Assembly: GCF_000027125.1 (NCBI RefSeq)
Contig: NC_017626.1
DNA from: Escherichia coli 042
GTDB taxonomy: Bacteria > Pseudomonadota > Gammaproteobacteria > Enterobacterales > Enterobacteriaceae
DNA length: 64,000 nt
Direction: 5' to 3' (one strand)
The notes beneath the pieces are model-generated. The model made no database searches, was not told the DNA's origin, and worked only from the letters and a program-made list of their open reading frames with translations. How positions within the stretch are numbered: the first letter of the stretch is position 1; the number at the start of each line of letters is the position of its first letter. Both the position numbers and the translations under genes were made by a program. Shown piece by piece: positions 2,098 through 30,193 of the stretch.

Positions 2098-2553
2098 GGG
2101 AGTTCTACCGCAGGGGCGGGGAACTCCAAGTGATGTCCATCATCGCATCCAGTGCGTCCGGTTTATCCCCGCTGACGCGGGGAACACACATGAATGTCGG
2201 TTCAGACCGTGTTTTTACCCGGTTTATCCCCGCTGGCGCGGGGAACACTCGTCGGCGTCTTCACCCGTCGCATAACGCTGCGGTTTATCCCCGCTGGCGC
2301 GGGGAACACTGCCAGCGTGTCGGCGTGCGTTTCGCGCTGCCCGGTTTATCCCCGCTGACGCGGGGAACACTCGATCGATAGCTGCGCGATACCTGCGGGG
2401 ATCGGTTTATCCCCGCTGACGCGGGGAACACGGCAGCTATCGAGGCAGTTATCGAGCGTCGCGCGGTTTATCCCCGCTGACGCGGGGAACACCAAAGGAC
2501 ACCGGGAGGCACCCGGCACCGCAGCGGTTTATCCCCGCTGACGCGGGGAACAC
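2098..2553 (-). CRISPR. CRISPR array (CRISPR2.1-type, cas-adjacent): 7 canonical 29-bp repeats plus one degenerate leader-distal repeat, 7 spacers of 32 bp
   Basis: Repeat CGGTTTATCCCCGCTG(A/G)CGCGGGGAACAC at about 2159, 2220, 2281, 2342, 2403, 2464, 2525 with exact 61-bp period; degenerate copy at about 2098-2126. Transcription inferred on the minus strand from the leader at 2554-2649. Confidence 0.95.
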
Positions 2554-2649: not shown

Positions 2650-3859
<1,210 letters not shown>

Positions 3860-3863
<4 letters not shown>

Positions 3864-4510
3864 GCCTCTGCTCCGGGTTTGATCAGCATCAGACCACAGC
3901 CGAACGCGCGGCTTTTGCCATACCCCTGGCTCAGACGTTGCAGAAATAACCCAGGATCGGTGACCGTAAGCATCCCCGTATAATCCACGCTACAGAACTG
4001 GATCAGTTGCCGGGAGTTTTCCCGCCGCAGTTGCTGTTGTCGGTAGGCATCGACCGAGGTATCCAGTAGTGTAAAACCGCTTCTTTCCCCCTGCGCTGCC
4101 AGCCAGTCCAGCGCCGCCTGTTGTTGATGCAACCAGACATCACGCCCTTCCGCCTGCCCCCTCACCTGCCGTTTCGCCTCTATCAGCAGATCGTGGCGCT
4201 TACCCGCTTTACAGACTGTTGGATTCGCCCGCAGGTTGAAACAAAGGGATTGTCCGGTACGCAGCTCCGGCGCAAATGACCGGCATTCGATGGTGAACGT
4301 ATCACTTTCCGCCGGGCGTTCCTGCGACAGGACAAAAAAGCGAAACGCGCCCTGGAGTTCTTCCCGACGATAAAGAAATTGCCTTTCTTTGCCACCCGGG
4401 AAAAGATCCCACAGCCACTGATGCATCACATATTCACCGCGATCCACCAGATGCAGCAACTGCGCAGGCGAAAGCTGGCCGGTATGTAAGGTTATTCTTG
4501 AGAGGTACAT
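3860..4510 (-). CDS. casE: Cas6e / CasE (Cse3) crRNA endoribonuclease
   Basis: Track ORF 3860..4648; I place the start at the internal Met (MYLSRITLH..., about 4510), which is preceded by AGGAGG. C-terminal glycine-rich segment GCGLMLIK typical of Cas6e. Confidence 0.85.
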
Positions 4511-5238
4511 GGTTCCTCCTTGCTGAGCCACGGCCCCTGATTGACGGTGCGTTCCCCAAACAGCCACTGCTGGCGATTTAAAGGAACATCCCGGCGGCGC
4601 AATATTTTGCTCGCGACCAGGCCGTCGTGCTCCCCTTCCCACCAGCATTCATCCTGAAGTTTCGGGAGTGAGACTTTCAGTTCGTGGAAACGATCCTGAT
4701 ACTGTTGGTATGCGTTACGTAAGACATCAGACGCGTTGCCTTCGAGCAGTAACGGCGCAAGTGGTAACGCCAGCGGATGACTTTTTCGCCCCAGATAAAG
4801 CGGAAAAACCGGATGACGTAAATCTTCCTGCAACTGTTCGAGGCTGTAAGGCGCATCGGGGGTTGTTGCCACCGCCACCATCCACCAGGCGTCGGTGTAA
4901 TAGTCGCGCCGGGAGATAATCGCGCTTAGCAGTTCAAGATTACTCAACTCTTCGCGACGGCTGAAATAACGCGCTTTACGCACCTCTTTTGGCATCTGGA
5001 CCGTGTGATAATCCCGTGCCCAGCGCGGGTTACGGCTGGCGCAAACCACCAGTGAATAGTGGCGATTAAACGCGTTTAAGCGTTCGGTATCATCACGCCG
5101 AATCCCTACCCCGGCAGCCAGCAGCCCCAGCAATGCTGAGCGCGAAGGCAGTTCATGGGTATGACGCACTTCACCGGGGGCATCGACGCCCCAGGATGCC
5201 ATCGGCCCATGAAGCTGAAAAATTAGATATTGGCTCAT
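4492..5238 (-). CDS. casD: Cas5e / CasD
   Basis: 248 aa, MSQYLIFQLHGPMASWGVD...RSALLGLLAAGVGIRRDD matches the Cas5e N-terminal motif; operon position. Confidence 0.9.
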   Translation of the reverse strand: MSQYLIFQLHGPMASWGVDAPGEVRHTHELPSRSALLGLLAAGVGIRRDDTERLNAFNRHYSLVVCASRNPRWARDYHTVQMPKEVRKARYFSRREELSNLELLSAIISRRDYYTDAWWMVAVATTPDAPYSLEQLQEDLRHPVFPLYLGRKSHPLALPLAPLLLEGNASDVLRNAYQQYQDRFHELKVSLPKLQDECWWEGEHDGLVASKILRRRDVPLNRQQWLFGERTVNQGPWLSKEEPCTSQE

Positions 5239-5248
5239 AAGCCGCCCC

Positions 5249-6304
5249 TTACGCGCAGATAAAGTCCAGCACGTCCTTCATGCTTCCCTGTTTGTTCATC
5301 ACGTCAAAACTTGTGTAATCGGTCTTCTGTTCGTAAACCTTATTCATGTTTTCGCGAAGCGTCGTAATACGCTGCACCGCTTCATCTAACTGCCCGGTGC
5401 CGTTAATGGGTTCATAAAAAGCCGCCGCCAGAGAGCGCGGTTGTTCGATACCTTTTTCTGCCATCGCCCAGGAGGCGTAGGCACGACTGGCAAAGCTGTT
5501 TTGTTTACCGGTTGGGGAAACTTTAAACGCGGCTTCCGTAAAGGCGCGCAGGGTCTGATTAGCCAACGCTTCGTCTCCGCCGAGGTTTTCTACCAACAGA
5601 TCTTTATCAATGCAGATATAGGTGTAGAAAAGTGCTGAACCGAATCCGGTTTCACCAAGATGCCCGGCACCGGCATCTTCAGAAGCCTGGCGCAAATCAT
5701 CAACGGCGGTGAAAAAATCATCTTCGACAATCGTTTCACTGACACCAAACGCATGCGCAACCTGGCAGGCGGCTTCAACATTAAACTCGGGTTTATTCGC
5801 CAGCATACGACCAAACATAGCGATATCTACCGCCATGCGATCTTTACGTAACAAAGCGAGATCTTCCTCTTTTGGCGCGCGCTTTTCTTCGGCCAGTTGA
5901 TGGGCCAGCGCTTTTACGGCGTCAAATTCTGCCGGGCTGATATGGACTAGCTGTTCAGTTTCGGCGTTAGTGAGCGGATCTTTTGGTTTTTTGTCGTTTT
6001 TAGCTTTCCCAAGATAATCCGCAATTTTTGCCGCCCATTCGATGGCTTTTTTCTCTTCGATGCCTTTCTCAATCAGGATAGTTGCCGCCTCACGCGCAAT
6101 ACGCCCACTGCGAATACCAATATGGCCCGCCAGTGCCTGTTCAAAATGTGCAGAAGTGCGCCACGCACGTTTCAGACTTTGTGAGGAAACGCGCAGACGC
6201 GTTGCTCCACCCAGTACCACAGTTTTTGGCGCACCGGTGTCATCACGGTTAAGGTTGGCAGCAGGGTAAGCGGTTAACAAATGAAGCTGAATAAATGTCG
6301 TCAT
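5249..6304 (-). CDS. casC: Cas7e / CasC (Cascade backbone)
   Basis: 351 aa, MTTFIQLHLLTAYPAANLNRDDTG...SSQSLKRAWR is the Cas7e signature; operon position. Confidence 0.92.
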   Translation of the reverse strand: MTTFIQLHLLTAYPAANLNRDDTGAPKTVVLGGATRLRVSSQSLKRAWRTSAHFEQALAGHIGIRSGRIAREAATILIEKGIEEKKAIEWAAKIADYLGKAKNDKKPKDPLTNAETEQLVHISPAEFDAVKALAHQLAEEKRAPKEEDLALLRKDRMAVDIAMFGRMLANKPEFNVEAACQVAHAFGVSETIVEDDFFTAVDDLRQASEDAGAGHLGETGFGSALFYTYICIDKDLLVENLGGDEALANQTLRAFTEAAFKVSPTGKQNSFASRAYASWAMAEKGIEQPRSLAAAFYEPINGTGQLDEAVQRITTLRENMNKVYEQKTDYTSFDVMNKQGSMKDVLDFICA

Positions 6305-6318
6305 GAGATAGTCCTTTA

Positions 6319-6855
6319 TTAATTTTGTTCGTTATCGGCGTCGCCAGCCTGGTAATATTCCAGCGCCCAGCGGATACGGATAAATTCTGTTGGCCGCTGC
6401 TGGCGGCGGTGATGATTGAGCAGATCGTCGCTCTCCTGGCACCAGCGGAAAATATCGTCTGCCAAAGAGATAAGATTGACGGAACCATTTAATAATTTGA
6501 CCGCGCGACGTAACTGGCGCAGTAATTCATCCGGCGTTTTGACTGCCGACAGGCGAGTAAAACGCCCCTCAGACATTACCGCCGCCAACTGCGCGGCAAA
6601 AAGCTGCCGTTCATCAATGGCTTTTACATTGGCGGCAACGGCGGCAACCAGCGCCAGTGCGGTAAAACGCCACTCCTGTGATTCAATTTTCCACAACGTG
6701 TGGGTCTGCATCAGCAGAGAACGAAACCCTTCTGACAGACAAACATCATTAACCGTTGTGCTACGCCGCAGACTGGCACGATTGCCTCGTTTTTCCTGCA
6801 ACTCTTCGTGCCATTTACGCAGCGTGGCTTTGTGCTCCTCTTTTACAATACTCAT
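6319..6855 (-). CDS. casB: Cse2 / CasB (Cascade small subunit)
   Basis: 178-aa ORF between casA and casC with ATGA-type overlap to casA; assignment mainly by operon position and size, sequence divergent from my memory of K-12 CasB. Confidence 0.75.
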   Translation of the reverse strand: MSIVKEEHKATLRKWHEELQEKRGNRASLRRSTTVNDVCLSEGFRSLLMQTHTLWKIESQEWRFTALALVAAVAANVKAIDERQLFAAQLAAVMSEGRFTRLSAVKTPDELLRQLRRAVKLLNGSVNLISLADDIFRWCQESDDLLNHHRRQQRPTEFIRIRWALEYYQAGDADNEQN

Positions 6856-8414
6856 TCAGCAGCCTCCTGCTTTTTCTCCCTGGCGGCTTTAGCACTTTGC
6901 TTCTCCGCCGATGTTGTAAAATATTTCTTGCGCGCGGTCATGACGCGTTTCAAATCAACGGGCTCATAAGGATTAGTGAATACACGCTCGTCAAAATCCT
7001 GACGCGCGAATAACCAAATTTCCTTTTGCCATTTGCCGAGTAATTCATCCGCATCCTGACCTTCTTCAATTTGGCGCACTAACCTCAGGAAGCGATGCTG
7101 AGTTTTGTTCCAGAAGTCGATATCCACAAAACTAAAATCACCCCGAGCACCTTTTGGATCGGAGAACCAGGCTTCTTTCAATGCACTCCGTAACAGACTT
7201 AGAATCCGTGAAGCCGTTTGCGCAACCAGCCGCAGCTTCGGTATCTGGCCTTCTTTTTTATTGAGCAGCAGCGGGAAATGGTGTTCGTACCAACAACGGG
7301 CTTTCATGTTGTCAAAATCATAACCAAATCCCCACAGGCCCACTTTTGTCTGCTTCAGACTGCTGGCATTAAAGAGTTTCACCACCAGCGCGGGAAGTTC
7401 CGTATTGTTTTCTGACTTACCCGTTTCGATAAGACCTAACCAGTCGCGCCAGATTAAACCGCCCGGTTGTGGTTTAACGGAGTAAAACTCACCGCCCTCT
7501 TTAAGTGGTACACGGTAAGGCGTTAAGGGATGCTGCCACATGGCATAATTCGCACCATAATTTTTGGTCGTCATCAGGCTCAGGAGCGAGTCATTCTGCT
7601 CGCCGCAAATATCGCAGTTGCCGACTGTCGTGGTATTAAAATCAATACGAATACGCCGCGGCATTCCCCAGTACGCCTGGAGTTTATTGACCTGATCATG
7701 GGTTACCACCGCACCGGCCAGTTCGCTGGTACGCGTCGGGCCAAGCCAGGGGAAAATCAGATCGTCAAATTTTTTGGGTAGCGGTAAGTCGGCTTCATCC
7801 TGCGGCATCACATTGAGCCACAGTTTGCGCCACAAGGGTGTTTGTTGATTGCCCTGATATTCCTGTAATTCAATCAGAGTGGTCATCGGCCCACCGCCGC
7901 GTAAACCGGTGCGATAGCCTTTGCCGCCTGACGGCGCATTTAACTGTAGGGAGAACAGAGCTAACGCAGAACAATGTGGGCACAGGTATTCCGTTACACC
8001 ACGCTTGATAAAGTGGTCTTTATTAAACTTCGTTGTTTGAGCGCCGGGAATCTCAGGCAGTAGCGAAGCGACCGGAATTTTATCTCCGGTGAGCGCCTCG
8101 AAATCCTGCATAAATGAAGGGGAATCTGGGCCAAACTGGAAAGCATGTTCTAAAGATAGCAATGCTTCCCGTAGCTTTTCAGCTTCCAGTCCGTCTTCCC
8201 AGATATCATCCCAACGACGATGATCTTTTGGCGCGAAGCTGGTTTGTAGTAGCCCCAGCAAAAACTGCCACGCCGCTCCCTGGAGATCTGCCCGCGGCGC
8301 AGCGATATCGACAACATTTTCATCCGCCAGATCGACTGGCGCCAGTTTGCCTGTTGTTCCGTCTTTAAAACGAACGGGCAACCACGGGGTTGTCAGAAGT
8401 GAAAACGAGTTCAT
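6852..8414 (-). CDS. casA: Cse1 / CasA (Cascade large subunit)
   Basis: Track ORF 6852..8483; I favour the start at MNSFSLLTTPWLPVRF (about 8414) with GAGAGG 6 nt upstream; the 8420 and 8483 starts remain possible. Size about 520 aa fits the Cse1 family. Confidence 0.8.
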   Translation of the reverse strand: MNSFSLLTTPWLPVRFKDGTTGKLAPVDLADENVVDIAAPRADLQGAAWQFLLGLLQTSFAPKDHRRWDDIWEDGLEAEKLREALLSLEHAFQFGPDSPSFMQDFEALTGDKIPVASLLPEIPGAQTTKFNKDHFIKRGVTEYLCPHCSALALFSLQLNAPSGGKGYRTGLRGGGPMTTLIELQEYQGNQQTPLWRKLWLNVMPQDEADLPLPKKFDDLIFPWLGPTRTSELAGAVVTHDQVNKLQAYWGMPRRIRIDFNTTTVGNCDICGEQNDSLLSLMTTKNYGANYAMWQHPLTPYRVPLKEGGEFYSVKPQPGGLIWRDWLGLIETGKSENNTELPALVVKLFNASSLKQTKVGLWGFGYDFDNMKARCWYEHHFPLLLNKKEGQIPKLRLVAQTASRILSLLRSALKEAWFSDPKGARGDFSFVDIDFWNKTQHRFLRLVRQIEEGQDADELLGKWQKEIWLFARQDFDERVFTNPYEPVDLKRVMTARKKYFTTSAEKQSAKAAREKKQEAAE

Positions 8415-8511
8415 ACGCATCCTCTCGTAAAAAAGACCATCCCAGGTCGGTTGTCCATCATTCCATCCTTTTGGGTGTATCAACTATTCAGAGAGCCCTG
8501 TCGCAGGCATC

Positions 8512-11169
8512 TCAACCAACCTTGCCAGTCAATCCTTCCATAGCCGAATACCCGCAACTTTCGTCATCGGTGACTAAAATCACGTTTGCCATCTCCGGAT
8601 CTTGCCGCTGTTCAATGCACCACTGCCTGAACGCATCCCCTTCCAGTAAAGAAAACTCATCCCGATGTTTTTTCCACCAGCTTCGACGCACTCTGACAAC
8701 GCTCATTTCCCATGCGTGAGCACCGGTGGCATAAGGCTTCACCACACCGTCAATACAGGTAGCCAGCCACAGGGAAACAGATTCCTCAGCCAGACGTGTC
8801 GACAGCTTTTCCGGAAGGTAATCGTTGATATTGGCGGCATAGCCAGGCTTGAAGTTCAGGACAAACTTTTTAGCCATTGCGCGATCGCAGTAATATTTGC
8901 CCACTTGCTCCTGCTCACTGCGGGCAAATCCTTCCGGCATTGCCACGTCTTCACCGTAGACTGATTCAATAAGAAGCCGGGCTGCGTGTGGCATCTGAAT
9001 AGCGCCTTGCTCACGCAGCACACGCTGCGTCAGCCAGATTCGCCCATGATCGGGGTAGACATATGCACTGTTACGCATGGCGCTGCCAAACCATTCGTCA
9101 CCCGGAGAGTCATCCCAGACGGGAGCCAGAATCAGCAATTCAGGAGGGGAACGCTCATCTTTTCCGTCACGCTTTAACTGACCATTAATATCGCGGATAT
9201 GCCGCTGTAATCGCCCCGCCCGCTGGATTAGCAAATCAATGTGGGCCAGGTCGGAGATCATTTCGTCCAGGTCACAATCGACGCTCTGCTCTAATACCTG
9301 AGTACAAATAAGGACTTTTCCGGCACGCTGTGAGTTACCTTCTTTACCAAAGCGTGCCAGCGTTTCCGTTTCAATTCGCTGGCGATCGCTAAAAGCAAAG
9401 CGGCTATGAAAAAGTGAAAGGCTGGAAGCGGGAATGACGCCGCGGGCAAGCAGCTGACGATGAACCTTAATAGCGTCATCGACAGAATTCCGGATCCAGG
9501 CGATGCATTTCCCCTGACTTACCGCCGATTCGATATGTGCAATACATTCTTGTTCGCTATGAAGCCAACCCACACACACGTTGCGCTCAACTTCTTTGCG
9601 CGTCGCTACCCGGTGCGAATGCAAATCGGATTTCGTGACATGCGTCAGCCATGGGTAATCATCCTTTTCAAGGAACGGAGCTTCTTGTTGGCCCTCTGCA
9701 CCACGCGCAAAGGCAGCGACGAGTTTGTCGCGCTGCTGTTGAGATAACGTAGCAGAAAGCAAAATGATACTGTTTCCGCCACGCGCCTGCCGCTCAATCA
9801 ATCCTTCAAGAATGCACGACATGTAAGCGTCACAGGCATGGATCTCATCAGCCAGCAGGATTTTTTTACTCAACCCCAGAAGCCGCAGATTATTATGTTT
9901 GAACGGCATCACCGCCATCATCGCCTGATCCAAGGTGCCGACGCCAATTTCAGCCAGCAACGCCTTCTTGTTACTGTCGGCAAACCAGGCCGCACATCCC
10001 TGGCTGAACGCTTGTTCATCCGGTTCTTCTGACCCGACTAAATCACCGGACCAGAGTGATTCATTGAAGCGGTCCATTAATGTATGGGCACTGTGTGCCA
10101 GCACCAGGCTGGGGCGGGATTCTGGCGAATAGAAAGCAAGCCAGGTTTTGACCAGCCGATCGTACATGGCATTGGCCGTTGCCATTGTTGGCAGGCCAAA
10201 AAACAAACCCTGAGCTTTCCCCGCAGCCATCAACCTGTGGACCATGATAAGCGCTGCTTCTGTTTTACCTGCGCCAGTCACATCCTCCAGAATAAATAAC
10301 TGTGGCCCAGGCTGGCTGATATCCAGATCCAGTACCTTTTGCTGTAACGGTGTCGGGTGCTCAATAAAAGGAAACAGTGTATTAATTCCGGTGAAAGGCG
10401 CGGTTTGTGCTTTTGGAGGAAAGACGGTTAAGGCGTTTTGAGCCTGAACTAAAGCCTTCTGCCAGTAATCTTTAATATCCATTGCCTGTGCAACGCGTGG
10501 AAAAAACCGCGTTGACGATCCCGTCCAGTCTGCGAGTACGACGGTTGCAGAGATATACCAGGAAAGTTGTTTTATAAGTTCAACGCCCTCGTCATCATCC
10601 CAGAATGTGGGGATCTCGATGAGCGGGAACAGTGTCTTGATTGCAAGGAGAAAATCTCGTGCGGCAGCTTTGTCTTCAGGCAGAAAATTATCCAGTTCAT
10701 CCATACGATCAGGAGGCTGACCATGATGCCCGGTAGTCATGGGCATCCACATCTCTATTACCCGTTTAAGTTTGCGGGGAGAGAGTGAAGATGAAGGAAG
10801 CAACTCTTCACATTCAATTAAATAATGATTCCACAACCAGTAGCCCAGCGTTGAATGAGAGATCTTTTCGTAATTTTTTCTTGCACTTTCCGGAACCTTG
10901 AGCTGTGGGTGCAGGTAAAGTTGCTGAAAAGAGCGGGCAAATTTTCCAGTATCGTGCCAACACAGCAACCAGGCGAAAAATTGTGCTGCCTGCTCCGTGT
11001 CAGCGATACCTAATTGACGAAAATAGTCAGCCAACCCGAAACAGTTGTTTTTGACCATTAAATAACCCGTCGCGGCTACATCCAGCGAATGCCAGCAAAG
11101 TAGATGATAGTCGTCGCCGCCCTCTTTCTCGCCACGTCGGGTTTTTCCCCAGAAATCAAAGAAAGTCAC
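8512..11169 (-). CDS. cas3: Cas3 helicase-nuclease (HD domain + DEAD/DEAH helicase), type I-E
   Basis: 885 aa; N-terminal HD motif (HSLDVA...H), helicase motif I (GAGKTEA), DExH-like LADEIH, motif VI QRAGRLQR. Confidence 0.93.
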   Translation of the reverse strand: MTFFDFWGKTRRGEKEGGDDYHLLCWHSLDVAATGYLMVKNNCFGLADYFRQLGIADTEQAAQFFAWLLCWHDTGKFARSFQQLYLHPQLKVPESARKNYEKISHSTLGYWLWNHYLIECEELLPSSSLSPRKLKRVIEMWMPMTTGHHGQPPDRMDELDNFLPEDKAAARDFLLAIKTLFPLIEIPTFWDDDEGVELIKQLSWYISATVVLADWTGSSTRFFPRVAQAMDIKDYWQKALVQAQNALTVFPPKAQTAPFTGINTLFPFIEHPTPLQQKVLDLDISQPGPQLFILEDVTGAGKTEAALIMVHRLMAAGKAQGLFFGLPTMATANAMYDRLVKTWLAFYSPESRPSLVLAHSAHTLMDRFNESLWSGDLVGSEEPDEQAFSQGCAAWFADSNKKALLAEIGVGTLDQAMMAVMPFKHNNLRLLGLSKKILLADEIHACDAYMSCILEGLIERQARGGNSIILLSATLSQQQRDKLVAAFARGAEGQQEAPFLEKDDYPWLTHVTKSDLHSHRVATRKEVERNVCVGWLHSEQECIAHIESAVSQGKCIAWIRNSVDDAIKVHRQLLARGVIPASSLSLFHSRFAFSDRQRIETETLARFGKEGNSQRAGKVLICTQVLEQSVDCDLDEMISDLAHIDLLIQRAGRLQRHIRDINGQLKRDGKDERSPPELLILAPVWDDSPGDEWFGSAMRNSAYVYPDHGRIWLTQRVLREQGAIQMPHAARLLIESVYGEDVAMPEGFARSEQEQVGKYYCDRAMAKKFVLNFKPGYAANINDYLPEKLSTRLAEESVSLWLATCIDGVVKPYATGAHAWEMSVVRVRRSWWKKHRDEFSLLEGDAFRQWCIEQRQDPEMANVILVTDDESCGYSAMEGLTGKVG

Positions 11170-24837: not shown

Positions 24838-26115
24838 ATGCAACACAACTCATATCGCCGTTGGATAACCCTCGCGATAATTAGTTTTAGCGGCGGCGTT
24901 AGTTTCGACCTGGCTTATTTACGTTATATTTATCAAATTCCCATGGCGAAATTTATGGGATTCAGCAATACCGAGATAGGTTTAATAATGAGTACCTTTG
25001 GTATTGCGGCTATTATTCTTTATGCCCCCAGCGGCGTTATTGCCGATAAATTTTCACACCGCAAAATGATTACTTCCGCGATGATCATTACCGGATTACT
25101 GGGTCTGTTAATGGCAACATATCCACCGCTGTGGGTAATGCTCTGTATTCAGGTCGCCTTTGCGATAACGACGATTTTAATGCTGTGGTCGGTGTCGATT
25201 AAAGCCGCCTCGTTGCTGGGCGATCATAGCGAGCAAGGGAAAATTATGGGCTGGATGGAAGGGCTGCGCGGCGTCGGTGTAATGTCGCTGGCGGTGTTTA
25301 CCATGTGGGTCTTTTCTCGCTTTGCACCGGATGACAGCGCCAGCCTGAAAACGGTCATTATTATCTATAGTGTGGTTTACATTCTGCTGGGCATTTTGTG
25401 TTGGTTTTTTGTTAGCGATAACAACAACCTGCGCAATACCAATAACGAAGAAAAACAGTCATTCCAGCTTAGCGACATCCTGGCTGTTTTGCGCATCAGC
25501 ACCACCTGGTATTGCAGCATGGTGATTTTTGGTGTCTTCACCATCTACGCCATTCTGAGTTACTCCACCAACTATCTGACCGAAATGTACGGCATGTCGC
25601 TGGTGGCGGCGAGCTACATGGGGATTGTGATCAACAAAATCTTCCGCGCACTGTGCGGCCCACTTGGTGGCATTATCACCACCTACAGCAAAGTGAAATC
25701 CCCTACCCGCGTGATCCAAATCCTTTCCGTACTCGGCTTGCTGGCGTTAACTGCCCTGCTCGTCACGAACTCTAACCCGCAATCGGTCGCGATGGGGATT
25801 GGCCTGATTTTACTGCTGGGATTCACCTGTTACGCCTCACGCGGGCTGTACTGGGCCTGCCCTGGCGAAGCGAGAACACCGTCTTACATTATGGGCACCA
25901 CGGTAGGTATTTGTTCGGTGATTGGATTCCTGCCGGATGTCTTCGTTTACCCGATTATCGGCTACTGGCAAGACACCCTGCCCGCTGCAGAAGCCTACCG
26001 CAATATGTGGCTGATGGGCATGGCGGCGCTTGCCATGGTGATCGTCTTTACCTTTTTGCTGTTCCAAAAAATTCGTACTGCTGATAGCGCCCCTGCTATG
26101 GCTAGCAGCAAGTAA
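24838..26115 (+). CDS. yqcE: MFS transporter
   Basis: 425 aa, polytopic hydrophobic profile; position between ygcW and ygcE. Confidence 0.85.
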   Translation: MQHNSYRRWITLAIISFSGGVSFDLAYLRYIYQIPMAKFMGFSNTEIGLIMSTFGIAAIILYAPSGVIADKFSHRKMITSAMIITGLLGLLMATYPPLWVMLCIQVAFAITTILMLWSVSIKAASLLGDHSEQGKIMGWMEGLRGVGVMSLAVFTMWVFSRFAPDDSASLKTVIIIYSVVYILLGILCWFFVSDNNNLRNTNNEEKQSFQLSDILAVLRISTTWYCSMVIFGVFTIYAILSYSTNYLTEMYGMSLVAASYMGIVINKIFRALCGPLGGIITTYSKVKSPTRVIQILSVLGLLALTALLVTNSNPQSVAMGIGLILLLGFTCYASRGLYWACPGEARTPSYIMGTTVGICSVIGFLPDVFVYPIIGYWQDTLPAAEAYRNMWLMGMAALAMVIVFTFLLFQKIRTADSAPAMASSK

Positions 26116-26141
26116 GTCCAGAAAATTACAGGAGAAAAATC

Positions 26142-27620
26142 ATGTCGAAAAAATACATCATAGGGATTGATGGCGGAAGTCAGAGCACAAAAGTGGTGAT
26201 GTATGATCTGGAAGGTAATGTGGTTTGCGAAGGCAAAGACTTATTGCAGCCGATGCACACGCCAGATGCCGATACCGCAGAACATCCTGACGACGATTTA
26301 TGGGCATCATTATGTTTTGCCGGTCACGATTTGATGAGTCAGTTTGCCGGGAATAAAGAAGATATTGTCGGTATTGGTCTGGGCTCCATCCGTTGCTGCC
26401 GTGCGTTATTGAAAGCCGATGGCACGCCAGCTGCGCCGTTGATTAGCTGGCAGGATGCACGCGTTACACGCCCTTACGAACATACGAATCCTGACGTGGC
26501 ATATGTCACCTCTTTTTCAGGTTATCTGACGCATCGCTTAACCGGCGAGTTTAAAGACAATATCGCCAACTATTTTGGTCAGTGGCCGGTGGATTATAAG
26601 ACCTGGGCATGGAGTGAAGATGCCGCAGTCATGGAGAAGTTTAATATCCCCCGTCATATGCTGTTTGATGTGCAAATGCCTGGCACCGTCCTCGGACATA
26701 TCACACCACAAGCCGCACTGGCGACACATTTCCCGGCAGGACTGCCGGTTGTTTGTACCACCAGTGATAAACCGGTAGAAGCTCTGGGGGCCGGATTACT
26801 GGATAATGAAACTGCGGTAATTTCTCTTGGCACTTACATCGCATTGATGATGAACGGCAAAGCACTGCCGAAAGATCCGGTGGCGTACTGGCCAATTATG
26901 TCTTCTATTCCGCAAACATTGCTGTATGAAGGTTACGGTATCCGCAAAGGCATGTGGACAGTGAGCTGGCTGCGCGACATGTTAGGCGAGTCGTTAATTC
27001 AGGATGCCAAAGCACAGGATCTTTCACCGGAAGATTTACTCAACAAGAAAGCGTCTTGTGTGCCGCCTGGCTGTAATGGTCTGATGACGGTGCTGGACTG
27101 GCTGACCAATCCGTGGGAACCGTACAAACGCGGGATTATGATCGGCTTTGATTCCAGCATGGATTACGCATGGATATATCGTTCGATACTGGAAAGCGTG
27201 GCGCTGACGCTGAAGAACAATTACGACAATATGTGTAATGAAATGAATCACTTTGCAAAGCATGTGATCATTACTGGCGGTGGTTCGAACAGCGATCTGT
27301 TTATGCAGATTTTTGCCGACGTGTTCAACCTTCCGGCACGACGTAACGCCATTAATGGTTGTGCAAGTCTGGGGGCAGCGATTAATACGGCGGTAGGTCT
27401 GGGGCTATACCCGGATTACGCAACGGCTGTCGACAAAATGGTTCGCATGAAAGATATCTTTATGCCTGTTGAGAGCAACGCCAAACGCTACGACGCGATG
27501 AATAAAGGCATTTTCAAAGACCTAACCAAACACACTGATGTGATCCTGAAAAAATCGTATGAAGTGATGCATGGTGAGCTGGGGAATGAAGATTCGATCC
27601 AGAGCTGGTCGAATGCGTAA
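26142..27620 (+). CDS. ygcE: FGGY-family carbohydrate kinase
   Basis: 492 aa; N-terminal GIDGGSQSTK sugar-kinase motif and C-terminal ITGGGSNSDLFMQIFADVF. Confidence 0.88.
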   Translation: MSKKYIIGIDGGSQSTKVVMYDLEGNVVCEGKDLLQPMHTPDADTAEHPDDDLWASLCFAGHDLMSQFAGNKEDIVGIGLGSIRCCRALLKADGTPAAPLISWQDARVTRPYEHTNPDVAYVTSFSGYLTHRLTGEFKDNIANYFGQWPVDYKTWAWSEDAAVMEKFNIPRHMLFDVQMPGTVLGHITPQAALATHFPAGLPVVCTTSDKPVEALGAGLLDNETAVISLGTYIALMMNGKALPKDPVAYWPIMSSIPQTLLYEGYGIRKGMWTVSWLRDMLGESLIQDAKAQDLSPEDLLNKKASCVPPGCNGLMTVLDWLTNPWEPYKRGIMIGFDSSMDYAWIYRSILESVALTLKNNYDNMCNEMNHFAKHVIITGGGSNSDLFMQIFADVFNLPARRNAINGCASLGAAINTAVGLGLYPDYATAVDKMVRMKDIFMPVESNAKRYDAMNKGIFKDLTKHTDVILKKSYEVMHGELGNEDSIQSWSNA

Positions 27621-27667
27621 GTGAGGAAGACCGGGCGGGAAACTGCCCGGCCTGAACATACCTGAAT

Positions 27668-27804
27668 GGTTATCCCCGCTGACGCGGGGAACATAAGTTC
27701 GACAACTTAAAAAATGATAACAAGTCCGGTTTATCCCCGCTGATGCAGGGAACATAATAAAAACTTTAACTAGTTCGGTTTATCCCTGTTTTTACAAGGA
27801 ATAT
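27668..27804 (-). CRISPR. degenerate CRISPR remnant (CRISPR2.2-like): about 3 decayed repeats
   Basis: Decayed repeat copies at about 27668 (GGTTATCCCCGCTGACGCGGGGAACAT), 27727 (CGGTTTATCCCCGCTGATGCAGGGAACAT) and 27776 (CGGTTTATCCCTGTTTTTACAAGGAATAT); spacing 59 then 49 bp. Confidence 0.7.
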
Positions 27805-28257
27805 TAACTACACTCGATGTCTTTAGAATAAAAGACAATACGAATCGCACTTTATCAATTTTCACTTAAAGTATGAACTGGATATCTTTATTCATAAGAA
27901 CTATTCATCAACAGCGTATAGAGGCGATTATGTAAAATCACTCATTAGCCTCAAAACAAAGACAAATTTCCAGATTTATTACTTAATCAATGAATAATAA
28001 GCTTAAAAAATACACTGTTATTCTAAAGAAAAAATTAACAGGCATTAATTAATATTAAAAAAATAATATATTAAAATTTCTTAACGATTTAAGAATCATA
28101 CAAATAACACTTTGATTAAATTTAATTTTTTGTATCGATAATTGTGAACTTCTCTGGCATGGAGAACTATTTTGAACATGAGGTGTTACGTGGATATGTT
28201 GCTTATTACAAGTACTGCTAATATAAAAACTTGAGAAAGAGATAACGGGTTATATGG

Positions 28258-28408
28258 TGGTTTATCCCCGCTGGCGCGGGGAACTCTTGGCATAGGCGCT
28301 ATAGCGGCGCTCTGTGTCCGGTTTATCCCCGCTGACGTGGGGAACTCAAAGACAAATTTCTTTGTTCCTATGGCCAGACCGGTTTATCCCCGCTGGCGCG
28401 GGGAACTC
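28258..28408 (-). CRISPR. CRISPR array (CRISPR2.3-like): 3 repeats, 2 spacers
   Basis: Repeats at about 28258, 28319, 28380 with 61-bp period, consensus CGGTTTATCCCCGCTGGCGCGGGGAACTC; the middle repeat carries GACGTGGGG. Confidence 0.9.
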
Positions 28409-28500
28409 TCTAAACATAACCTATTATTAATTAATGATTTTTTAAGCCAGTCACAATCTACCAACTTTACAGTATCACACAAACAACACATCCATTATGT
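28409..28500 (-). promoter_or_regulatory. CRISPR leader for the 28258-28408 array
   Basis: AT-rich, abuts the terminal repeat, shares AAACATAAC and CAATCTACCAAC with the 2554-2649 leader. Confidence 0.65.
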
Positions 28501-28746
28501 TAAAGAGCATTTAATCCATTGATTAAAAAGATAAATATTTGAAATAACTCTATTCAAACTAAAATCTACCAAATTTCACCGCAATAATTTTCACTCCAAC
28601 GAAAAATTAACGCCATAAAATTTGTAGAGAATGATAATGATTAGTTCAGGATGGGCAAAATGGAGGTTTTTCAGAGGCGACAAAGAATATAAATGAGTAG
28701 AAGTCTTTACAGGTTCCACCCATTTATAACGCTTATAAATGTTTAA

Positions 28747-29418
28747 TCAGGCAATATTTAAATATTTATGCGTTTGCATCGACAAACGCCAGTTGCGCGC
28801 AATGCACGTATCGATACATAAACGAGTAGCATCATCCTTTTGGCTAATCGGCTGCAGTGCAATGACTCGCGGTTTATCATCGGTCAGTGTTGCCAGTAGT
28901 TCATCCAGTGCTTCAATATCACGTACGCGTCCCACTGGATGCTTGATTTCGTTGGCTCGCTCCAGTGCCTGTGACAACACTTCATAGCCGCCGCGCATGT
29001 TCAGCTTTGGCGATACGGTAACCCAGGTATTCGGTGTGCAGCGTACCTCATGAGTACCACTGGTTTCGATCTGGCAGCTAAAACCGTTCTTTTCGAGCAG
29101 GTCAGTCAGTGGCAGCAAATCATGAATGCAAGGCTCACCACCCGTAATCACCACATGCCGCGCGGTGTATCCCTGGCGACCAATGACAGCCAGCAAGTCT
29201 TCACTGCTCGCCGCCCCCCACTTATCACTCTCTTTGGTCTTCGCCAGAATGCTGAAAAGGGAGACTTCCCGATCCTCAAGCTTTTCCCAGGTGTGTTTGG
29301 TGTCGCACCAGGCACAGCCAACCGGGCATCCCTGTAAACGAATAAAAATGGCGGGGACGCCGGTAAAGTAACCCTCACCTTGCAGGGTCTGGAACATCTC
29401 GTTAATCGGGTACTGCAT
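28747..29418 (-). CDS. queE: 7-carboxy-7-deazaguanine synthase (radical SAM)
   Basis: 223 aa, MQYPINEMFQTLQGEGYFTGVPAIFIRLQGCPVGCAWCDTKHTWEK (radical-SAM Cys cluster). Confidence 0.93.
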   Translation of the reverse strand: MQYPINEMFQTLQGEGYFTGVPAIFIRLQGCPVGCAWCDTKHTWEKLEDREVSLFSILAKTKESDKWGAASSEDLLAVIGRQGYTARHVVITGGEPCIHDLLPLTDLLEKNGFSCQIETSGTHEVRCTPNTWVTVSPKLNMRGGYEVLSQALERANEIKHPVGRVRDIEALDELLATLTDDKPRVIALQPISQKDDATRLCIDTCIARNWRLSMQTHKYLNIA

Positions 29419-29590
29419 AGCATTCTCTGTGAAGTGGATAATTGTTAATTATTGCAGATCCTGCCACAACAATCATGTCTTATTAACATTCTGTTACAGG
29501 CAGGTTTAAGGCAAAAAGTGGATGAGATCATAAAGAATAAAATGAAGCGGCGTATTATGTTTTAAGGAATTAATTAAAAGGGACATAGAC

Positions 29591-30193
29591 ATGCTCAGGA
29601 TATTCATCGTAATTATATTTATTGCCAATTTATCAGGCTGTGGATATAACGATATTCAAACCTATGATGAGCAGGTTAACGCCTCCTGGTCTGAGGTATT
29701 GAATCAATATCAACGTCGCGCCGATCTTATTCCTAATCTTGTCGCCAGTATTAAAGGTTATTCCAGCCATGAACAAGAGGTACTGGAAGCCGTAACATTG
29801 GCACGTAGCCAGGCTAATCGCGCCAGTAGCGATCTTCAGCAAGCTCCGGGAGATGCGCAAAAATTACAAGCCTGGCAACAAGCCCAGGCGCAGGTGTCTC
29901 GCACTCTCGGTCAGTTAACGATAATTAGTGAACGTTACCCTGATTTAAAAGCTCAGGAACTCTATCAAAATTTAATGGTACAGCTCGAAGGAAGTGAAAA
30001 TAGAATTGCCGTTGCGCGAGGAAGATATATTAAAGCCATTGAACAATATAATGTCACTATCCGCAAATTCCCCGCTGTATTAACCGCAAAGGTCATGGAT
30101 TACACACCGAAGAAAAATTATTTGCCGGATGACGTCGCAGCTGTGAGTAAAGCACCAATAATAGATTTTAGCCAGAATGCTAATGCGCATTAA
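29591..30193 (+). CDS. LemA-family protein, probable lipoprotein / membrane-anchored
   Basis: 200 aa; N-terminal hydrophobic segment with lipobox-like LSGC; LemA-like core (ASWSEVLNQYQRRADLIPNLVASIKGY...ERYPDLKA...QLEGSENRIAVARGRY...YN). AAGGGA SD. Confidence 0.85.
   Translation: MLRIFIVIIFIANLSGCGYNDIQTYDEQVNASWSEVLNQYQRRADLIPNLVASIKGYSSHEQEVLEAVTLARSQANRASSDLQQAPGDAQKLQAWQQAQAQVSRTLGQLTIISERYPDLKAQELYQNLMVQLEGSENRIAVARGRYIKAIEQYNVTIRKFPAVLTAKVMDYTPKKNYLPDDVAAVSKAPIIDFSQNANAH

Follow-up and report, generated by a model that had tools for sequence, protein, structure and literature searches.

The intergenic region between ygcE and queE of Escherichia coli 042 holds a small CRISPR array and, separated from it by AT-rich DNA, three eroded repeat copies. 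The question raised by this locus is whether the eroded copies are a fossil array decaying beside its own former leader, as a first-pass annotation had proposed, or something that the genome retains. The window, which is the whole stretch of 64,000 nucleotides that we analyzed, contains both E. coli type I-E loci, namely CRISPR-I on the iap side and CRISPR-II between ygcE and ygcF. It also contains the cognate cas genes for the arrays as a complete cas2-cas3 operon. The two loci and the genes flanking CRISPR-II are composed of the following features.

2159..2553, minus strand: CRISPR2.1 array, seven repeats ending ..AACAC, with leader2.1 at 2554-2649.
2650..11169, minus strand: complete type I-E cas operon (cas2, cas1, cas6e, cas5, cas7, cse2, cse1, cas3).
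26142..27620, plus strand: ygcE (FGGY-family carbohydrate kinase), the left flank, assigned from the ORF, the RefSeq annotation of matching records, and weak FGGY-family matches.
27629..27652, unstranded: GC-rich hairpin after ygcE, recognized from the sequence, RNA folds, and outgroup intergenic regions.
28258..28408, minus strand: CRISPR2.3 array, three repeats ending ..AACTC and two 32-nt spacers.
28409..28746, minus strand: leader2.3, a leader of functional type that belongs to CRISPR2.3 and reaches up to the queE stop codon.
28747..29418, minus strand: queE (ygcF), the right flank, assigned from TIGR04322 (E 1e-110) and annotation.

The relic and the DNA joining it to CRISPR2.3 comprise six further features.

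27667..27694, minus strand: eroded repeat A, 28 nt, one T lost from a TTT run, hairpin intact, ending ..AACAT.
27695..27726, minus strand: CRISPR2.2 spacer 1, 32 nt, with an internal palindrome AAGTT-CGAC-AACTT; its minus-strand sense is AAGTTCGACAACTTAAAAAATGATAACAAGTC.
27727..27755, minus strand: eroded repeat B, matching the type-A consensus at 26 of 29 positions.
27756..27775, minus strand: CRISPR2.2 spacer 2, truncated to 20 nt, invariant in 21 loci.
27776..27804, minus strand: eroded repeat C, matching the consensus at 18 of 29 positions, with all changes from GC to AT.
27805..28257, unstranded: AT-rich inter-array DNA, 453 bp, 26.5% GC, single copy, by alignment not homologous to type I-E leaders.

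The first-pass annotation had described three eroded repeat copies spaced by 59 and 49 bp, about 450 bp of very AT-rich DNA at 27805-28257, and a three-repeat array beyond it. This anatomy is real, including the low GC content of the AT-rich DNA (50.5% GC in the whole window) and the 49-bp spacing. The first spacing had been counted from 27668 instead of 27667; the start-to-start distances are 60 and 49 nt, leaving spacers of 32 nt, the canonical length, and 20 nt. On the plus strand, three relatives of the type I-E repeat CGGTTTATCCCCGCTGGCGCGGGGAACTC lie within 27660-27810, and an array was defined as at least two direct repeats matching the 29-nt consensus CGGTTTATCCCCGCTGRCGCGGGGAACWC (repeat cluster 2). 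When a profile was made exclusively from the window's canonical repeats, a search of 8.3 kb with it recovered repeat A with an E-value of 2e-8 and repeat B with an E-value of 9e-8. Repeat C is marginal when taken alone, as only its first 11 nt score against this profile (E 0.25), and a comparable 11-nt partial match occurs by chance within ygcE at 26764-26774. These two observations are all that speaks for a chance resemblance of the eroded copies to CRISPR repeats. For A and B chance is refuted by the E-values; moreover, the spacer between them has the canonical 32 nt, and in E. coli CFT073 and E. albertii true arrays end in repeat A. We therefore regard chance resemblance as having practically no probability. 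Repeat C is accepted as a repeat because of its 18 matches (binomial tail 3e-4 at p=0.3), its position in register after B, its retained palindrome, in which five of six hairpin pairs are kept with two T-A replacements, and the exclusively GC-to-AT direction of its changes. Hence the earlier view that a CRISPR-derived relic is kept in tandem with the small array stands, both on the profile E-values and the 32-nt spacer and on the occurrence of repeat A in true arrays of other genomes.

A palindrome that could form the Cas6e hairpin is present in all three copies. All three hairpins fold in minus-strand RNA; that of A is perfect, and that of B has one G-U pair, which corresponds to a C-A pair on the plus strand. 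In the stem of C, two of six pairs are changed on both sides. We considered this as a sign of compensatory selection and rejected it, as by our own combinatorial count five mutated stem positions would produce it by chance with a probability of about 0.15. For spacer 1, neither a second chromosomal site in E. coli nor a significant phage match was found, and protospacer searches with CRISPR2.2 spacer 1 and CRISPR2.3 spacer 2 returned chance-level matches only.

Orientation was settled from the repeats. The published repeat consensus has the leader at its ..AACWC end, and the plus strand of the locus reads in the sense of this consensus, so that leaders lie to the right of their arrays and transcription proceeds on the minus strand. 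In agreement, leader2.3, which is described in PMC3903273 and PMC3737337, is located to the right of its array. It is similar to leader2.1 (1 of 300 shuffles scored as well), and its counterpart in E. albertii is 93% identical. Thus every CRISPR element of the locus is oriented for minus-strand transcription from leader2.3 beside queE. The order in the sense of transcription is queE, leader2.3, CRISPR2.3, AT-rich DNA, repeats C, B, and A, the hairpin, and the 3' end of ygcE. The relic, earlier placed upstream of the small array, is therefore downstream of it.

The flanking genes and the anatomy identify the relic with an element that is already known. According to PMC3903273, CRISPR-II is either a single array (CRISPR2.2-3) or consists of CRISPR2.2 and CRISPR2.3, 0.5 kb apart. 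Leaders are assigned to CRISPR2.1 and CRISPR2.3 in PMC3903273 and PMC3737337, and CRISPR2.2 has no assigned leader there. In the literature CRISPR2.2 has three type-2 repeats and two invariable spacers, and its carriers include K-12, O157:H7, and BL21 (PMC3737337). The nomenclature is that of Diez-Villasenor et al. 2010, as applied in PMC3903273, PMC3737337, and PMC4489801. The relic lies on the ygcE side of the ygcE-ygcF/queE interval, has three repeats and two spacers, and is 453 bp from CRISPR2.3; structurally it does not differ from the published element. The interval matches thousands of E. coli chromosomes, each time between ygcE and queE. We put the probability at roughly 85% that the relic is the published CRISPR2.2, with about 0.45 kb of AT-rich DNA between it and the CRISPR2.3 array and leader. 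Presumably it is also the element called CRISPR III in K-12. As CRISPR2.2 is a catalogued feature of CRISPR-II and has long been used in CRISPR typing, its structure itself is of little import. The PGAP pipeline always leaves CRISPR2.2 unmarked: in other strains its CRISPR feature begins at CRISPR2.3, and in a strain identical to the window no CRISPR is marked at the locus. CRISPR2.2 is consequently undercounted in automated CRISPR surveys.

The AT-rich DNA adjoins the leader-proximal end of repeat C, and with the arrays read on the minus strand it occupies the position of the relic's leader. Its GC content is near that of the real leaders (29% and 24%), and like them it lies against a repeat end of the ..AAC(W)C type and is more conserved near the repeat than further off. 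In position and composition, the term pseudo-leader used in the first-pass annotation is apt. Homology, however, was not found by any comparison. The 453 bp as a whole and the repeat-proximal 120 bp were both aligned with leader2.3, type-A leader2.1, and K-12 leader2.1, and the local alignments are no better than those of dinucleotide shuffles. An nhmmer profile of the three leaders, run with filters off, has no match in 27600-28257 at E<=10, whereas it finds the leaders of E. albertii (E 2e-18) and Klebsiella spallanzanii (E 5e-11), which served as positive controls. The real leaders share the motifs CTAAACATA and CAATCTACCAAC. The AT-rich DNA has neither, and no repeat-proximal leader motif was found in it. 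Its only perfect IHF consensus is 300 bp from C, whereas the two real leaders have theirs at 93-116 bp from the array. Of the three repeats, the one next to it is the most degenerate and not the best preserved. Nor does 27805-28257 contain further decayed repeat copies, even at E<=100. Judged by these sequence comparisons, the AT-rich DNA and type I-E leaders are not homologous, and the alignment to functional leaders that the earlier reading would predict is not seen.

A fossil array with its own fossil leader would require that an ancestral unit was tandemly duplicated or superseded and that the older copy has since decayed neutrally. Besides the position, the GC content, and the drop of conservation with distance from the repeat, which is also seen in leader2.3, this account can draw on the common 3' end of A, B, and C (..AACAT/AATAT), which would be expected if the repeats had been made serially from one leader-proximal variant. 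Against it stand the negative alignments and profile, the lacking motif, and the distant IHF site. A recent duplication of leader and array is unlikely, as E. coli and E. albertii still share 93% identity in leader2.3, and nothing similar to leader2.3 is seen in the AT-rich DNA. The duplication would have to be old, and yet there are outgroups that have leader2.3 and repeat A but lack the AT-rich DNA. Finally, synonymous sites are 12 to 48 times more diverse than the relic, which is thus not decaying neutrally. Taken together, we consider a fossil leader improbable.

The block that carries repeats and AT-rich DNA is widespread in E. coli. It is present in 4164 of 5426 complete genomes (77%), in single copy and only on the chromosome. 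A plasmid origin was rejected, as the only matches labelled as plasmids are mislabelled 4.8-Mb E. coli chromosomes. Searches for a phage relative of the AT-rich DNA gave no match, and sensitive blastn detected no paralogue in any E. coli genome, including those without the block. For the outgroups, one genome per species was scanned with QueE as query, which yielded 80 enterobacterial queE loci; a homologue of the block or of the AT-rich DNA is absent from all of them. An exact-protein look-up of QueE, aimed at other Escherichia species, returned only E. coli-type loci. In E. albertii, leader2.3 and three repeats are followed by ygcE; in E. whittamii, leader2.3 is fused to a single repeat; and E. 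coli CFT073 has two repeats. None of the three has the insert. We take CFT073 to belong to phylogroup B2, as presumably do most of the genomes without the block. In Escherichia lineage L009, Citrobacter, and other genera, the GC-rich hairpin is the sole element between queE and ygcE.

The fused arrays of CFT073, E. albertii, and E. whittamii (CRISPR2.2-3) share with the split locus the ygcE-side flank, leader2.3, and, next to ygcE, repeat A with the same T deletion. The left flank of repeat A in these genomes is CCTGAATGG, or CCTAAATGG in E. albertii. The fused arrays are without B, C, the two spacers of CRISPR2.2, and the 453 bp of AT-rich DNA, and their repeat A ends in ..AACTC or ..AACCC, in contrast to ..AACAT in CRISPR2.2. 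In CFT073 and E. whittamii the terminal repeat is of hybrid type, its 5' part being that of A and its 3' end reading ..AACTC. Hence repeat A and leader2.3 are the ancestral ends of Escherichia CRISPR-II, A being the ancestral terminal repeat, and what lies between the end of A and the first CRISPR2.3 repeat, namely B, C, the two spacers, and the AT-rich DNA, is one block.

Two histories of this block were weighed. Parsimony on the lineages compared, namely E. coli with CFT073, E. albertii, E. whittamii, lineage L009, Citrobacter, and other genera, favors a single gain within E. coli, and we lean towards this history. The block would then most likely have entered, or become trapped in, an ancestral single array, and recombination of repeat A with a CRISPR2.3 repeat could remove it again to give a fused CRISPR2.2-3. 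Repeat-to-repeat recombination does occur at the locus, as NCCP 13906 and strain 21B8 have each lost one A/B unit. The same observation makes repeated loss mechanistically easy, and so the split architecture of CRISPR2.2, AT-rich DNA, and CRISPR2.3 might instead be ancestral to Escherichia and have been lost independently in E. albertii, E. whittamii, and CFT073-type strains. The hybrid terminal repeat is the exact product expected from a deletion crossover, and the near-neutral diversity in the right half of the insert implies that the insert is no younger than its carrier lineages. An insertion crossover, however, explains the hybrid repeat equally well; three or more independent losses are needed in place of one gain; and the AT-rich DNA is untraced in any of the 80 enterobacterial loci. 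Repeated loss is the less likely history, though it keeps an appreciable share of the probability.

If the relic were a snapshot of array decay, as had been suggested, it should vary. We aligned the 3' end of ygcE together with the sequence up to the first CRISPR2.3 repeat in 12 and then 21 loci, chosen across the identity range. Segregating sites per alignment columns and nucleotide diversity (pi) are as follows.

ygcE third codon positions: 72/304, pi 0.076.
ygcE first and second positions: 25/608, pi 0.010.
Block 27667-27955: 8/289, pi 0.006.
Nearly invariant core 27683-27926: 4/244, pi 0.0016 (21 loci).
Right part of the AT-rich DNA, 27956-28257: 48/304, pi 0.038.

The core begins within A, of which it takes in the 3' half, and covers B, C, the two spacers, and the ~120 bp of AT-rich DNA next to C. 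The differences are significant by Fisher's test, with 7e-16 for the core versus ygcE third positions and 3e-8 for the block versus the right part. Parsimony-informative sites number 30 in the left 467 bp and 29 in the right 302 bp, compared with two in the block, and the haplotypes of the flanks are several, deep, and recombining with each other. Three equal 289-bp megablast queries against all 5426 genomes gave the same picture. Identity to the window of at least 99% is found for the block in 2434 of 4164 genomes, for the right part in 34 of 4161, and for the 3' end of ygcE in 26 of 5372. Even leader2.3 is less conserved than the relic (proximal pi 0.016-0.025). The relic is thus a fixed feature of the genomes that carry it and far less variable than its flanks, and the description as a snapshot of decay has to be given up.

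The relic takes up no new spacers, since spacer 1 is identical in 4048 of 4062 genomes. The variability of spacers between strains that goes with acquisition at the leader end is not seen in it. No extra repeat-spacer units occur in the 21 loci, the sole change seen being the loss of one unit. As it has no canonical leader-repeat junction, the relic would be inert for adaptation. A relic that is simply inert is expected to diverge neutrally, like the right half of the insert, and this is not seen. The two halves of the insert occur in the same genomes, and the outgroups have neither, which makes the halves equal in age. Unequal diversity in halves of the same age points to constraint on the relic and the ~120-150 bp beside it or, less plausibly, to a local sweep. 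The near-invariance would therefore reflect purifying selection on some secondary role.

What such a role might be was approached from the transcripts and structures that the region could form. Published work lists the ygcE/queE intergenic region of K-12 as promoter island 2901670_347, H-NS-associated and situated between convergent genes (PMC2731890, PMC3661553 Table 1). For the 78 promoter islands of K-12, in vivo binding of RNA polymerase is reported, and between ygcE and ygcF a small RNA has been predicted, HB_171 (PMC2731890, PMC3661553). The intergenic region is listed among the promoter islands (Shavkunov 2009; Panyukov and Ozoline 2013), yet a simple promoter scan of the AT-rich DNA shows no significant enrichment, with 7 promoter-like sites versus 4.8 +/- 2.2 in shuffles. 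The best minus-strand site, at 27954-27927, has a -10 element that reads CATAAT in the window and CATAAC in most strains, so the key T is polymorphic. From K-12 coordinates, we assume the island to fall on 27805-28257. No terminator-like site was found in the AT-rich DNA. Any RNA of the relic would stem from read-through of CRISPR2.3 or from the promoter-like sites in the AT-rich DNA. As the hairpins can fold, transcription of the region in the presence of Cas6e might conceivably yield a crRNA with spacer 1. An Rfam scan of 26000-30000 at E<=1 returned only a chance Chlorobi-1 match on a CRISPR2.3 repeat. The longest ORFs in the conserved block encode 31 aa (minus strand, GTG start) and 20 aa (plus strand), neither with a ribosome-binding site. 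Compared with shuffles, the folding of 27805-27955 (151 nt) has z-scores of -1.6 on the minus strand and -2.6 on the plus strand, and the variable part has -0.8; this signal is weak.

On this basis, we tentatively consider that the relic and the adjacent ~120-150 bp (27667-27955) may be a functional element under purifying selection, a reading to which we give rather less than even odds. It could take the form of a minus-strand transcript processed at the A and B hairpins into a fixed crRNA-like RNA, of a plus-strand RNA (a ygcE 3' UTR or small RNA), or of protein-binding DNA. The contrast in diversity between the core and all three comparison classes, the scarcity of informative sites in the block, and its near-identity across more than two thousand genomes argue for this reading, as do the hairpins of A, B, and C in minus-strand RNA and the prediction of HB_171. 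Against it count the negative Rfam search, the lack of any ORF longer than 31 aa or preceded by a ribosome-binding site, the unenriched promoter-like sites with a polymorphic -10 element, and the modest folding scores. No outgroup carries the block, and its lack of variation leaves no room for covariation. The low diversity could also reflect a local recombination sweep. More doubtful still is the specific proposal that 27667-27955 is a CRISPR-derived element under purifying selection across E. coli, perhaps acting as a crRNA-like or small regulatory RNA from A and B that is possibly HB_171.

In the CRISPR2.2 literature examined, we found no quantified contrast in diversity between CRISPR2.2 and its flanks, no negative test of leader homology, and no report that E. 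albertii and E. whittamii lack the insert. The primary description, Diez-Villasenor et al. 2010, may already treat where the 0.5 kb DNA comes from. The conservation of the relic is possibly the only new point. In a supposedly dead CRISPR relic, conservation is about that of ygcE at its first and second codon positions, while the other half of the same insert drifts near-neutrally. If this conservation is indeed due to selection, E. coli would have reused a CRISPR remnant for another role.

The three arrays of the genome each have a different repeat 3′ end, as listed here.

CRISPR2.1, 2159-2553, minus strand: seven-repeat array, repeat 3′ end ..AACAC (type A)
CRISPR2.3, 28258-28408, minus strand: three-repeat array, repeat 3′ end ..AACTC (type T)
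CRISPR2.2, 27667-27804: relic of three eroded repeats (copies A, B, and C), repeat 3′ end ..AACAT/AATAT

The A/T dimorphism of the repeat 3′ ends has been published (PMC3737337), and in the literature searched on these arrays, we found no discussion of the ..AT end of the CRISPR2.2 relic. We inspected the RefSeq/PGAP CRISPR features in the strain identical to the window (L002) and in loci L087-L098. The features always start at the first repeat of CRISPR2.3, and CRISPR2.2 is never inside them. Loci whose CRISPR2.3 array is just two or three repeats long, as in the genotype of the window and in O157:H7, carry no CRISPR annotation at all.

The leader of CRISPR2.3 (leader2.3, 28409-28746) contains two copies of the motif AATCTACCAA(C/A)(T)TT, which are located at 28455-28468 and 28563-28576. 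The matching part of the motif, CAATCTACCAAC, is also the best-conserved stretch in common with leader2.1, the leader of CRISPR2.1, where it lies at about 2597-2610. The Escherichia whittamii leader (L008, 5673-5902) lacks the ~100 bp separating the two motif copies, as if this segment had been deleted by recombination between them. The IHF consensus WATCAANNNNTTR is matched perfectly at 2646-2658, 28512-28524, and 28105-28117 (minus strand). The first two matches are in the real leaders, 93-116 bp from the array, and the third is at a distance of 300 bp from copy C, in the AT-rich DNA between CRISPR2.2 and CRISPR2.3 (27805-28257). All of these are farther from the repeat than the known leader IHF site.

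A 14-nt stretch of the AT-rich DNA, CAAAGACAAATTTC (27957-27970), recurs exactly where spacer 2 of CRISPR2.3 begins (28347-28360), covering the final repeat base and 13 nt of the spacer. Any 14-mer common to the array and shuffled AT-rich DNA was obtained in only 2 of 5000 shuffles. The match is PAM-distal in the crRNA sense and hence not a seed match; in K-12, it contains one mismatch. Searches of phages and plasmids with spacer 2 returned no match.

On the other side of the relic, a GC-rich hairpin (27629-27652) lies 3′ of ygcE; neither of its strands carries a U-tract. The convergent genes queE and ygcE have nothing but this hairpin between them in Citrobacter and other genera (L012 and L015, around 5670-5770). 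In Escherichia, the entire CRISPR-II locus is placed between queE and the hairpin. Within ygcE, 11 nt on the minus strand (26753-26776) match the 5′ end of the repeat (CGGTTTATCAC). This match accounts for several of the reported inverted-repeat pairs, and with E 1.4 it scores no better than chance.

Two structurally variant forms of the locus were observed, in L094 (NZ_CP068591.1) and L006 (NZ_LR536431.1). One is a deletion fusing queD to a truncated ygcE, and a ~12-kb deletion of the same kind has been described in O156:H8 (PMC5359238). In the other, an IS1/IS3 insertion has eliminated most of the AT-rich DNA, of which 34 bp remain beside CRISPR2.3. The 3′ end of ygcE (27200-27620) differs by up to about 5-7% among E. 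coli strains, and the window strain differs from E. albertii (L007) by 6.4% in this region. As the difference within E. coli equals that to E. albertii, the sequence comparison suggests that the alleles around the CRISPR-II locus are unusually deep or introgressed.
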